Source: Nitrospirota bacterium
GTDB lineage: Bacteria; Nitrospirota; UBA9217
DNA: 64,000 nucleotides
Assembly (NCBI GenBank): GCA_963840455.1
Contig: CAWIYV010000011.1
Span: forward strand, 288,001 to 352,000
Reading direction: 5' to 3'
The position numbers and the translations under genes are program-made. Under the pieces are notes generated by a model, which saw only the letters and a program-made list of their open reading frames with translations, was not told the origin of the DNA and ran no database searches. This document shows, one piece after another, positions 1,107 to 4,498 of this stretch (within the stretch, counting starts at the first letter, position 1; each line of letters opens with the position of its first letter).

Positions 1107-2627
1107 TCACAATTTTTCAAGTGCATTCGCCAGGGCCTCGGCTTTTTCAAGGGTCTCGGCATACTCCCGCGCCGGATCGGAGTCGGCCACGATCCCTGCG
1201 CCCGTCTGGACGTAGGCGACGCCGTCCTTGATGATGAAAGTCCTGATGATGATGTTCAGGTCCAGGTCGCCGTTGTTCGCGAGATACCCCAGTGATCCGG
1301 TGTAGAGCCCGCGCGCCACAGGCTCCAGCTCGTCGATGATCTCCATACATCGCACCTTGGGCACGCCCGTGATGGTCCCGCCCGGGAACGCGGCGCGGAT
1401 GAGGTCGAAGCCGTCCCTCCCCGGCGCCAGTTCGCCCCGCACGTTCGACACGATATGGATCACGTGGGAATAGTCCTCGACCACCATCAGCTCGTCCACG
1501 GAAACGGTCCCGTAGGCGCACACCTTGCCGAGGTCGTTCCGCTCGAGGTCCAGCAGCATGATGTGCTCGGCCCGTTCCTTTTCGTTCGTCAGGAGCTCGG
1601 CGGTGAGGTCCCGCGTCTCTGAGAAGTCCCGCCCTCGCCGCCGCGTCCCCGCAATGGGCCGGGTATCGGCGATGCGCCCCGTGAGCCGCACCAGCCTCTC
1701 CGGCGAAGAGCTGACGACCGTGAGGCCGTCGAACTCGGCGTAGGCCGCAAAGGGGGAAGGATTGATCGCGCGCAGGACCGCGTAGAGACCAAGCGGATCG
1801 AGGCCGCCGATCACCGCCGAGAACCGCTGGGACAGGTTCGCCTGGTAGATGTCGCCGGCCGCGATGTACTCCTTGCATCGCCGCACCATGGACTCGAAGC
1901 GTTGCTGCGTCAAAGAAGGCTCGAGGCGGACACGGGGGGATGCGCTCTGCTCCGGCAAGGACCGATGACCGGCACGTGCTACAAGCTTTTCGGCGGCTCC
2001 TGTCAGCCGCTCCGCCGCCTCATCGTACAATCTCCCCCACTGGTCCGGCTCGGGTTTCCGGAAGCCCATCTCCTGCTCCCGCGCCCCGGGGTTCACGATC
2101 ACCCATACCCTGCCCGCCAGGTGGTCGAAGGCGACCACCAGGTCCACGAACAGGAAGCACGCCTCGGGGGTCCCGAGGTCGTCCAGTGCCGTCCGCGGAA
2201 GCTTTTCGATCTGGTGGACGAACTCGTATGAGAAGAAGCCCACGGCCCCTCCCGTGAAGGGAGGCAGTCCCTCAACTCGCTCCGTGCGGTAGTTCGCCAT
2301 CAGTTCGCGGAGCTTCGGGAGCGGCTTACGCTTCAGAGAGGCGCGTTTGCCGTATTTGCCCTGCGGGGCTACCGTCCAATTCAGGTCCACCGTATCACCG
2401 TGTGACCGGAAGATGAGGTAGGGGTCCGCGGTCACGAAGGAGTACTGTCCCGTTCTCCCGTTGACCCGGGCGCTCTCCAGGAGCACGGGATGACCGAGCG
2501 GACGCAGGGCGTGCACGGCGGAAAGCGGCGTGACCGCAGCCACGTCAAGCTCTGCATGCAGCGGAATGATCCTGCCGTTACTTACCGCGGTCAGGAACTC
2601 TTCCCGTGATGGCGTGATCTTCTTCAT
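1107..2627 (-). CDS. Anthranilate synthase component I / aminodeoxychorismate synthase (TrpE/PabB family)
   Basis: Motifs LLESA, FTGGAVG, GDIYQANLS, SSSPERL, PIAGT, EHIMLLDLERNDL, FPGGTITGVPK, GAGIVADS. Start uncertain (2627 or 2648). Confidence 0.92.
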   Translation of the reverse strand: MKKITPSREEFLTAVSNGRIIPLHAELDVAAVTPLSAVHALRPLGHPVLLESARVNGRTGQYSFVTADPYLIFRSHGDTVDLNWTVAPQGKYGKRASLKRKPLPKLRELMANYRTERVEGLPPFTGGAVGFFSYEFVHQIEKLPRTALDDLGTPEACFLFVDLVVAFDHLAGRVWVIVNPGAREQEMGFRKPEPDQWGRLYDEAAERLTGAAEKLVARAGHRSLPEQSASPRVRLEPSLTQQRFESMVRRCKEYIAAGDIYQANLSQRFSAVIGGLDPLGLYAVLRAINPSPFAAYAEFDGLTVVSSSPERLVRLTGRIADTRPIAGTRRRGRDFSETRDLTAELLTNEKERAEHIMLLDLERNDLGKVCAYGTVSVDELMVVEDYSHVIHIVSNVRGELAPGRDGFDLIRAAFPGGTITGVPKVRCMEIIDELEPVARGLYTGSLGYLANNGDLDLNIIIRTFIIKDGVAYVQTGAGIVADSDPAREYAETLEKAEALANALEKL

Positions 2628-2689
2628 ACAATCAGCAGTTATCAACATCCTCTGCGAAGAACAGGATATCTGCCCGATAAAGTTAAAAA

Positions 2690-2718
2690 AGTGTAGACAC
2701 AATTCCCGGGGGGGTCAA
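2690..2718 (-). promoter_or_regulatory. sigma70 promoter of the trpE/pabB-family gene
   Basis: TTGACC-17 bp-TACACT on the minus strand. Confidence 0.65.
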
Positions 2719-2761
2719 GGAATATTTATTTAAGAATTATTCTTATGAACTTGACAGGGTG

Positions 2762-2770
2762 TGCTATACT
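2762..2770 (+). promoter_or_regulatory. Extended -10 promoter for the putative ncRNA
   Basis: TGcTATACT; the nearby TTGACA at 2751 is not at canonical spacing. Confidence 0.5.
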
Positions 2771-2808
2771 ATGTTCAGGAAGAGAGCAGAGCAGAATCCC
2801 GGTCTTTG

Positions 2809-3143
2809 AAATAGACAAGTGAAAGAGGCGTTGCCGAACCAACACCCTAGCGTGTATATAGGTAACCCGTTAAAAGGGGAATAAAGCAGCGGAAGAACGG
2901 ATACCGAAGCCGGAAAGCGGACCGCAATTTGAGCGGTAAGACTGCCGGTATGGGTTCCACGGGTCCGCAAAGCCGTATTAGCTGATATCCCCGAAGCCCC
3001 GGCGTGGCGGGAGTTAAGCAGCATGCTTCACCGGTCCTGCAGGGCAGGACCATCGAAGTGGTCGTAGAGTACCCCGAGCCGCCGGGACTCAACGGAATGC
3101 AACCAATCGGTTCGGTGGCAACGCCTTTTTTATTTGTCTATTT
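2809..3143 (+). ncRNA. Putative large structured non-coding RNA of unassigned class
   Basis: 2809-2835 pairs fully with 3117-3143 (27 bp, 3 G-U), extended by GAACC/GGTTC. Several internal hairpins, an upstream promoter, a U-tract in the 3' arm, and no credible ORF. Confidence 0.75.
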
Positions 3144-3173
3144 TCTTCTCACTGTTCCACATCCCTCATGCAT

Positions 3174-3202
3174 TTGACAGCCGCCGCTTCTCCTGCTATC
3201 AT
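3174..3202 (+). promoter_or_regulatory. sigma70 promoter of glgC
   Basis: TTGACA-17 bp-TATCAT. Confidence 0.75.
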
Positions 3203-3247
3203 TTTTTTGTTACTTTCTGATATTCCCTATACGGCTAAGGAAGAACC

Positions 3248-4498
<1,251 letters not shown>

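Follow-up and report, generated by a model that had tools for sequence, protein, structure and literature searches.

A structured non-coding RNA of about 310 nt with a boxA-like leader element, rated as a new RNA class, in a family of uncultured Nitrospirota

Positions ~2760-3143 on the forward (+) strand of a 64,000-nucleotide stretch of a Nitrospirota genome, referred to here as the window, are a self-contained gene for an unassigned structured non-coding RNA of ~310 nt (about 2820-3131). We rate the RNA as a new class that belongs to no described family, and we consider it reasonably probable that it is a stable, very abundant, trans-acting RNA with rRNA-like biogenesis and a ribonucleoprotein role. 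An earlier note, made from the letters of the window, had proposed an unassigned structured RNA with its own transcription unit at this place. Strong covariation, a conserved promoter and the depth of the RNA in RNA libraries bear this out; the estimated length of ~335 nt and several of the interior helices needed correction, and the mature RNA is nearer 310 nt.

The two ends of the element are joined by a long stem. As the earlier note had described, positions 2809-2835 (AAATAGACAAGTGAAAGAGGCGTTGCC) pair without a gap with 3117-3143, forming 24 Watson-Crick and three G-U pairs over 27 positions. The G-U pairs (G2819, G2821 and G2825, each opposite T) are found on the + strand only and become C-A mismatches on the - strand. 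When folded with RNAfold, the + strand gives a structure closed by this stem with a minimum free energy of -146.9 kcal/mol (z = -6.76), and none of 100 shuffled sequences was as stable. The - strand of the element also has a stable fold (z = -6.07). Since both strands fold well, folding energy by itself cannot pick the strand. The conserved core of the stem, P1, is its inner 16-17 bp, formed by GGCGUUGCCGAACC (2827-2840) and GGUUCGGUGGCAACGCC (3109-3125) and kept throughout the family, while the outer 18 bp are restricted to the genus of the window. In six members of this genus the extension forms duplexes of -12 to -23 kcal/mol from sequences that differ. A similar leader-trailer extension was considered for other genera and rejected, given a native median of -7.5 kcal/mol and a median of -6.8 kcal/mol for mismatched controls.

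We aligned 49 distinct copies of the RNA from P1 to the U-tract (alignment A2) and obtained a consensus fold by a vote over the base-pair probabilities of each sequence. The fold has 87 pairs in 15 helices, of which 55 pairs show changes on both sides. Standard pairs occupy 86.4% of the cells, compared to 33-43% with the 3' partners shifted by 1-3 columns. Covariation scores 0.251, versus 0.05-0.09 in controls, and none of 500 shuffles attains any of the five measures used. Thus, compensatory changes exceed those of the controls, as expected for a structured RNA gene. The copies show no codon periodicity (0.251/0.256/0.265) and have lengths in all three mod-3 classes. Coding potential was rejected on these grounds.

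In the consensus architecture (Table 1), P1 includes both ends of the RNA and is followed by the P2 hairpin, and the short helix P3a and helix P3 surround two domains. Domain I is composed of P4-P8, and domain II of P9 around hairpin P10 and a variable region. Six of the 11 pairs in the outer part of P1 are invariant in all 49 copies, and compensatory changes are seen in the inner 5 bp (e.g., AU in 33, GC in 12 and UA in 2 copies). P3 is AGGCT with AGCCT/GGCCT in loci L077 and L074. The terminal hairpin of domain I has a conserved 7-nt loop that reads AAGUUGA in most copies and AAUUUGA in the window. A pseudoknot between the conserved loop AAGUUGA and CUCAAC was examined and rejected, given six C-A mismatches and a loop that stays unchanged where P3 changes. 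In domain II, 14 of the 19 pairs of helices 11, 13 and 14 changed on both sides, and these helices are paired in 77-97% of cells. The interior stems listed in the earlier note all exist as complementary words, but the comparative data keep two and replace the others. Supported by the 49 copies are ACCGC/GCGGT and GGTCCTGC/GCAGGACC. The ATACCG/CGGTAT stem with its CCG-GAAAG-CGG hairpin gives way to GCCGG/CCGGU plus AGC/GCU, and the GAGTACCC/GGGACTC stem to a long-range helix (alignment A2 columns 194-201 with 319-326).

Table 1. Features of the RNA gene, in positions of the window.
Feature	Position	Strand	Remarks
Promoter: TTGACA (2751-2756), 3 bases, extended -10 TGTGCTATACT (2760-2770)	2751..2770	+	Predicted start near 2777
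5' leader	2777..2819	+	Length and sequence variable between genera; often a small hairpin
boxA-like element GGTCTTTGAAA	2801..2811	+	In the leader; same as an 11-mer of the genome's own 16S leader
Genus-specific stem extension, 5' strand	2809..2826	+	Pairs with 3126-3143
P1, 5' strand GGCGTTGCCGAACC	2827..2840	+	Family-wide closing stem; GGCGTTGC also kept in the divergent paralogue
P2 hairpin (ACAC...GTGT)	2842..2855	+	Helix 3; 89% of cells paired
P3, 5' strand CCGTT	2867..2871	+	Pairs with AACGG (3091-3095); surrounds both domains; helix 5, 90% paired
Domain I, nested P4-P8	2876..2992	+	Helices 6-10; both-side changes in 30/36 pairs
Domain II, P9 around the P10 hairpin (3025-3059) and variable region	2995..3090	+	Helices 11, 13 and 14
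P1, 3' strand GGTTCGGTGGCAACGCC	3109..3125	+	From alignment and consensus fold
U6 tract directly 3' of P1	3126..3131	+	Mature 3' end here or a few bases further
Genus-specific stem extension, 3' strand	3132..3143	+	Runs on from the U-tract

The gene has predicted transcription signals of its own. The extended -10 pointed out in the earlier note is present and conserved, aligning in nearly all 49 copies. The composite TTGACA-N3-TGTGnTATAnT occurs at two sites in the 4.03-Mb genome, those of the window gene and its paralogue. Primary copies have 45-94 nt between the -10 and P1, secondary copies 22-23 nt. The 5' leader is probably cut off from the mature RNA. Directly after P1, TTTT is invariant in 49/49 copies and TTTTT nearly invariant. 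Judged by its sequence, the GC-rich P1 (16-17 bp) followed by U6 looks like an intrinsic terminator, with a G+C-rich stem and then a U-tract; what is unusual is the "loop", which comprises the entire RNA body of ~270 nt. A consensus terminator scan misses P1/U6 because its loop limit is 8 nt. We infer the start site, the removal of the leader and the transcribed strand from this promoter and terminator logic, together with the adapter-abutted contig ends of relatives described below.

Two protein genes flank the RNA gene: one on the - strand (1107..2630/2702), for a chorismate-binding enzyme of the TrpE/PabB type, and glgC (3248..4498), which is on the + strand and begins 117 nt past the element. 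Promoter-like sites were found for both neighbors (2718-2690 on the - strand; 3174-3202 on the + strand, the site of glgC and an 11-of-12 match), in agreement with the claim of the earlier note that each has its own promoter. The divergent TrpE/PabB-like gene adjoins the RNA in 42 of the 49 copies, and no other conserved protein neighbor was found for the primary copy. On the downstream side, the 49 copies have genes from more than 15 different clusters, on the opposite strand in about 20 copies, and GlgC in only six loci. There is thus no conserved same-strand downstream gene or pathway of the kind that accompanies a riboswitch or cis-acting leader.

The leader contains a candidate boxA (Table 1). 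An identical 11-mer precedes the 16S gene of this genome by ~125 nt, and the genome has five occurrences of it versus about 1.9 expected. The alignment of sequences upstream of the 49 copies shows a conserved GrTCTTTGAAA between the extended -10 and P1. The 16S-leader box (ATGGTCTTTGAAAACTAAATAGGTGC) was found at this place in all 26 family genomes whose 16S leader was read, with one base difference in G005, and sits downstream of a TTGACA-type promoter in these genomes. Among the RNA copies, GnTCTTTGA is present in 36 of 49, starting 23-48 nt before P1 (0.0056 expected per window), and in 31 of these 36 it starts 23-29 nt before P1, with a mode of 25. A looser form of the box is found in 46 of 49 copies, and the three without it are secondary copies. 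Ten primary copies have deviant boxes (e.g., TCTTTCTAAA and TCTTTATCA), whereas the rrn boxes read in those genomes are invariant. The paralogue has no boxA. Thus, the element in the window matches the boxA of the genome's own rrn leader in sequence and is positioned in the leader of a transcript, which suggests an rRNA-like, Nus-assisted biogenesis.

The leader box also resembles the published gamma-proteobacterial boxA consensus GYTCTTTAANA, whose authors state that non-coding RNAs were left out of consideration (PMC5725501). According to a review, boxA nucleates the rRNA elongation complex and holds the leader at the RNA exit, where it may meet its distant partner to form an RNase III stem (PMC8632103). 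As the boxA of the RNA leader is the same as that of the 16S leader, a NusB/NusE-nucleated complex of the rRNA type could assemble on it. As in the rRNA leader/boxA system (NusB-NusE, NusA, NusG, SuhB), the same 11-mer lies 5' of one strand of a long-range closing helix, and the extended leader-trailer stem in the genus of the window resembles the RNase III stem around 16S (PMC8632103). In contrast to the rRNA leader, the window gene has a 310-nt RNA as its product, some copies and the paralogue have no box, and binding of Nus factors is putative.

Public sequencing runs indicate that the RNA is abundant in the environment. Sampled words of positions 2650-3250 were detected in 20 runs from 11 studies at a fraction of 0.21-0.41 per run, and 13 of these runs are recorded as RNA. 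For four RNA libraries, each from a different study (sediment, freshwater, sediment and soil), we mapped the contigs on positions 2400-3600. Bins 2810-3137 are covered in every library, and the summed word depths reach 25,605, 732,598, 13,266 and 19,269; relatives contribute to these summed contig depths, which gauge expression poorly, and strand and true ends are not readable from contigs. In run X7, an exact-match contig (2835-2915) has a depth of 2,054, about 270 times that of a near-identical contig (3154-3360; depth 7.65) over the promoter and 5' end of the next gene. Bins 2482-2809 are without cover, as are bins 3138-3342 in three runs; the leaders of relatives differ in sequence. The uncovered flanks give a weak hint that the leader is missing from the abundant RNA.

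Several contigs abut sequencing adapters. Illumina adapter sequence is found directly before 2823 (run X6), and adapters are found 3' of 3125, of 3131 plus eight letters (X7) and of 3134 plus four letters (X6). Combined, the ends are near 2816-2826 and 3125-3138. The earlier note had suggested that the closing stem could be an RNase III processing site. RNase III is encoded in the genome, and the extended leader-trailer stem is limited to the genus of the window, but the observed RNA ends have no clean 2-nt overhang. In two of the four RNA runs (X1 and X5) we identified head-to-tail joints with starts at 2820-2826 and exits at 3129-3131. In X1, one joint (depth 278.5) links 3130 to 2820 across four intervening letters and another (depth 69.4) links 3131 to 2822; the X5 joint (depth 189) links 3129 to 2826, also across four letters. 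The depth of the joint contigs is about half that of the end bins in X1 and <1% in X5. These joints could represent circular or concatemeric RNA. Equally, P1 keeps the ends close to each other, and ligation or template switching between them could produce such joints. Our preferred model leaves them without explanation.

To describe the distribution of the RNA we used a covariance model, R1 (286 positions, 74 pairs), made from the alignment trimmed to the inner P1 (A3). Within one Nitrospirota family, R1 detects the RNA in 62 of 64 genomes, including 32/32 high-quality genomes and 19/19 genera, and the two genomes without a match are 71% and 68% complete. In 123 genomes of 21 other Nitrospirota families the only match is a 24-nt fragment (15 bits), and with lax filters five genomes of five other Nitrospirota families yield one 57-nt hairpin (16.7 bits). 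Using blastn, we found a single copy in the 4.03-Mb genome of the window; relatives of the same family had matches in 21 of 24 genomes, and none was found in 16 genomes from other families of the phylum. In the blastn set, kinship jumps from "same family" to "same phylum", so the family seems to be alone in its order and class among the genomes compared. The GTDB class UBA9217 is described as uncultured Nitrospirota that are prominent or common in aquifers (PMC11033732). The family of the window probably belongs to this class.

A pattern scan over 185,579 species genomes returned at least 119 loci, 45 of which (48 copies) are confirmed by nhmmer. Among the matches listed, all 45 confirmed loci are in MAGs labelled Nitrospirota, Nitrospirae, Nitrospiria or Nitrospiraceae, and the carriers include MAGs named UBA9217 and GWC2_57_13. 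None of the 74 non-Nitrospirota pattern loci among the matches listed passes nhmmer, and those of them that were inspected look like chance or coding matches, for example a conserved coding stretch common to several Oscillospiraceae loci. The earlier note had suggested a similar element near abrB in Clostridia. This suggestion is not supported, given the failure of these 74 loci and the result of R1, which has no match in 150 genomes of the class of one Clostridia-type MAG; 16 Clostridia loci likewise have no Rfam match where the pattern occurs. Five pattern matches in viral sequences were all left unconfirmed by the follow-up search.

R1 also recovers full-length, low-scoring matches (34-54 bits) in six genomes, which represent a divergent paralogue (type B). 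In the genome of the window it is found at positions 825448-825728 of contig C11, about 535 kb from the window copy. Type B keeps the fold: seven low-scoring copies (the six paralogues and one secondary copy) are 77.5% paired, compared to 26-44% when slid. The ends of type B keep GGCGTTGC...GCAACGCC. Its promoter is close to GGTTGACAAAATGTGGTATACT in five of six aligned copies, the copy of G100 being the one without it. Because P1 begins about 8 nt after the -10, type B has no leader. Five of the six aligned copies have a separate, ordinary terminator hairpin after P1. With blastn, type B is found in 16 of the 63 family genomes searched and in none of 337 other genomes. Each type B locus has different neighbors, with no conserved one among them, and the six paralogue loci have no Rfam match at E<0.1.

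Searching the 64-kb window with Rfam 15 (4227 models, including OLE, GOLLD, ROOL, raiA, HEARO, riboswitches and ribozymes) gave no match at the gathering score. At E<10, the region 2600-3300 has only three noise matches, outside or beside the element. RNase P, 6S, tmRNA and SRP RNAs are encoded elsewhere in the genome (279.9, 86.5, 200 and 74.3 bits, respectively), thus the window RNA is additional to them. The placement of the RNA outside known families, as proposed in the earlier note, therefore stands. The gene for Ro60 (TROVE), the protein associated with Y RNA/YrlA, was not found in the genome of the window, whereas control genomes were positive. We found no published description of the RNA in a literature search of the main text of openly accessible papers.

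Large orphan RNAs (OLE, GOLLD, ROOL, raiA and IMES-type RNAs) provide the closest comparison in general features. They are several hundred nt in size, have an intricate fold supported by covariation with many invariant unpaired bases, and combine a narrow phylogenetic range and very high representation in RNA libraries with a gene context that gives no functional clue. The window RNA shares all of these characteristics. Unlike them, it was detected only in Nitrospirota, is chromosomal with fixed synteny and has an rRNA-type boxA in its leader, and it has no Rfam 15 match to any of them. With RNase P RNA, tmRNA and SRP RNA it has in common the size class, a P1 formed from both ends, long-range helices and apparent precursor processing, but these three are encoded elsewhere with strong Rfam scores and no model matches the locus.

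Several other explanations for an RNA of this kind deserve consideration. One is a global regulator that binds and sequesters RNA polymerase, similar to 6S RNA or the mycobacterial Ms1 RNA. Like these, the window RNA appears to be stable and very abundant, with a strong promoter of its own and paired 5' and 3' ends, and it has a paralogue within one genome, as is known for 6S RNA. However, a canonical 6S gene is already present (86.5 bits), the fold is branched with two domains rather than a rod with a central bubble, and there is no Rfam 6S-type match even at E<10; we regard a polymerase-binding role as unlikely. The head-to-tail joints bring up a self-processing or circularized RNA, in which the RNA itself, or a ligase such as RtcB, would cleave and join the P1-held ends to form an exonuclease-resistant circle. 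The genome encodes RtcB, the abundance is extreme, and the joints occur in two of four RNA runs, in X1 at about half of the end-bin depth. Yet the joint positions are several bases apart, the X5 joint has <1% of the local depth, adapter-abutted linear ends are present too, and Rfam 15 shows no match to a known self-cleaving ribozyme. Moreover, ends in one helix favor template switching or ligation during library making, and tandem genes may also be the source of joints that come from RNA runs alone. Such a circle therefore seems doubtful to us. We are similarly skeptical of a composite account of a super-abundant, lineage-specific RNA class that is made by the rRNA machinery (boxA/Nus), processed at its P1 ends, present partly as a closed circle and possibly tied to the ribosome or translation. 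Were it true, the RNA would be a chromosomal, circular ribonucleoprotein RNA of one deep Nitrospirota lineage, processed like rRNA. RNA-only multimers were recently reported for ROOL, GOLLD, OLE and raiA RNAs, and an assembly of this type, formed without protein, would suit the large size, the many invariant unpaired nucleotides, the very high abundance and the scarcity of conserved protein genes near the RNA. We give it a small chance, as the gene has a syntenic chromosomal position, whereas many ROOL and GOLLD genes are carried by phages, and multimerization is conjectural.

Explanations that tie the element to a nearby gene, to CsrA or to mobile DNA are weaker still. With a terminator-like P1 and U6 and with glgC on the same strand 117 nt further on, the element could act in cis on the downstream gene, as a leader or riboswitch. 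This is very improbable, given that GlgC is next in only six loci and the next gene is on the opposite strand in about 20 copies, that glgC has its own 11-of-12 promoter match, that the paralogue has no conserved neighbor, and that in X7 the RNA is about 270 times deeper than the contig over the promoter and 5' end of the next gene. Since the downstream gene varies in family and strand, a leader for one particular gene is excluded, as the earlier note had anticipated. The same note had proposed that GGA motifs might allow CsrA binding, and there are indeed several conserved GGA/GGG words (e.g., CGGAAGAGCC and ACGGAAUG) that might serve as a sponge for CsrA or a similar protein, as in CsrB/RsmZ. 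But no CsrA gene was found in this 100%-complete genome, while control genomes were positive, and the conserved words have their GG within helices that covary; we therefore attach very little weight to this idea, although a partner other than CsrA is conceivable. Finally, the long inverted repeat at the ends and the good folding of the - strand might suggest a DNA-level repeat, such as a MITE with terminal inverted repeats. This can practically be dismissed, in line with the earlier note: the genome has one copy by blastn, and one plus one divergent paralogue by the model, the G-U pairs exist on one strand only, compensatory changes are spread throughout the interior, 42 of 49 copies have the same neighboring gene, and RNA-library depth is high.

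We favor a stable, trans-acting RNA made in an rRNA-like manner, for which we propose the following route. The primary transcript would start near 2777, with a leader bearing a boxA identical to that of the 16S leader, and a NusB/NusE-nucleated elongation complex of the rRNA type would assemble on this leader. Such a complex could resist Rho, and it would hold the leader close to the exit channel while about 290 nt are transcribed and the 3' strand of P1 comes out. Transcription would then stop at P1 and its U6 tract. Trimming would leave about 4-7 nt of the leader in front of P1. In the genus of the window this may proceed via the extended leader-trailer stem, and the 18-bp extension may correspond to the processing stem of rRNA. 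The invariant sequence of P1 and invariant nucleotides at the junctions could be where protein partners bind or where RNA-RNA assembly takes place, and the RNA may be part of a ribonucleoprotein that is specific to the lineage and serves housekeeping or global regulation. The neighborhood indicates no protein partner, as the other neighbors of the primary copy and the neighbors of the paralogue are not conserved.

Large, intricately folded bacterial RNAs without a known job are rare, and each new class (OLE, GOLLD, ROOL, raiA) has started its own line of work. The RNA described here is universal in a lineage of uncultured Nitrospirota, and in environmental RNA libraries its depth is hundreds of times that of contigs over neighboring genes. 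Its boxA raises the question of whether Nus-factor complexes aid the closure of long-range helices in RNAs beyond rRNA, and its P1 the question of whether a whole folded RNA can act as the hairpin of its own terminator. In metatranscriptomes from sediment, soil and groundwater, the RNA is an unannotated sink for reads and a sensitive marker of the lineage. The covariance model could seed an Rfam family.

Two minor observations concern other copies. Of ten proteins flanking type B that were scanned (eight loci), one is an IS110-family transposase. Some genomes carry extra copies of the RNA, for example three in tandem in L059.

The gene for the structured RNA (about 310 nt) and the divergently transcribed TrpE/PabB-like gene upstream have one compact, conserved divergent promoter region in common. 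Upstream of the RNA's -10, at a distance of about 45 nt, lies a GGTCAAG block that is conserved at aligned positions in 40+ copies. Read on the opposite strand, this block is the -35 (TTGACC) of the TrpE/PabB-like gene; the promoter region therefore belongs to both genes.

A divergent paralogue, type B, is encoded in the same genome. It has the same fold as the RNA and the same unusual promoter, TTGACA-N3-extended -10. Type B carries neither the leader nor boxA, and a separate canonical terminator hairpin follows the 3' side of P1, the stem that closes both ends. Its distribution is patchy (16 of 63 family genomes by blastn), and no conserved neighbours of type B were found. On the same strand as one type-B copy, and upstream of it, is an IS110-family transposase (PF02371) whose end lies 521 nt away. 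None of the other proteins in a scan of ten that flank the paralogue at eight loci is a transposase, so this position is probably a coincidence. Elsewhere, the RNA gene is found as three tandem copies, each with its own -10, in a genome with five matches to the RNA's model. Of the three, the first has the leader box; the third resembles the paralogue.

In the 16S leader of the family, boxA and the bases that follow it form a near-invariant ATGGTCTTTGAAAACTAAATAGGTGC, located about 120-130 nt upstream of the 5' end of 16S across 26 genomes of the family; in one of them (G005) a single base is different.

Locations of the promoter block, paralogue, tandem array, transposase and 16S leader (G000, genome of the window; C11, its contig; L, searched loci)
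Feature	Location	Strand	Remark
GGTCAAG block	window 2714-2720
Type B	G000 contig C11:825413-825790		= L181:2966-3345; outside window
Tandem RNA genes	L059:3683-4919	-
IS110-family transposase	L192:3-977
16S leader with ATGGTCTTTGAAAACTAAATAGGTGC	G000 contig C11:1306-1450	-	also loci L204-L246

Contigs from two public RNA libraries, X1 and X5, contain head-to-tail joints linking window positions 2820-2826 to 3129-3131, and in X1 the contig with the joint reaches roughly half the depth seen in the end bins. Such joints are the pattern expected of circular or concatemeric RNA, and equally of a library artefact. A single X5 contig (depth 189; window 2997-3101) skips 103 bases, which would take out most of domain II; this contig could stem from a variant or from a relative, or be an artefact.

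Several Oscillospiraceae/Clostridiales MAGs have in common a conserved protein-coding stretch that fits the closing-stem pattern as well (loci L035, L073, L114, L128, L130, L131, L150 and L069), which may be the origin of the suggestion in the earlier note that the RNA has a relative in Clostridia.
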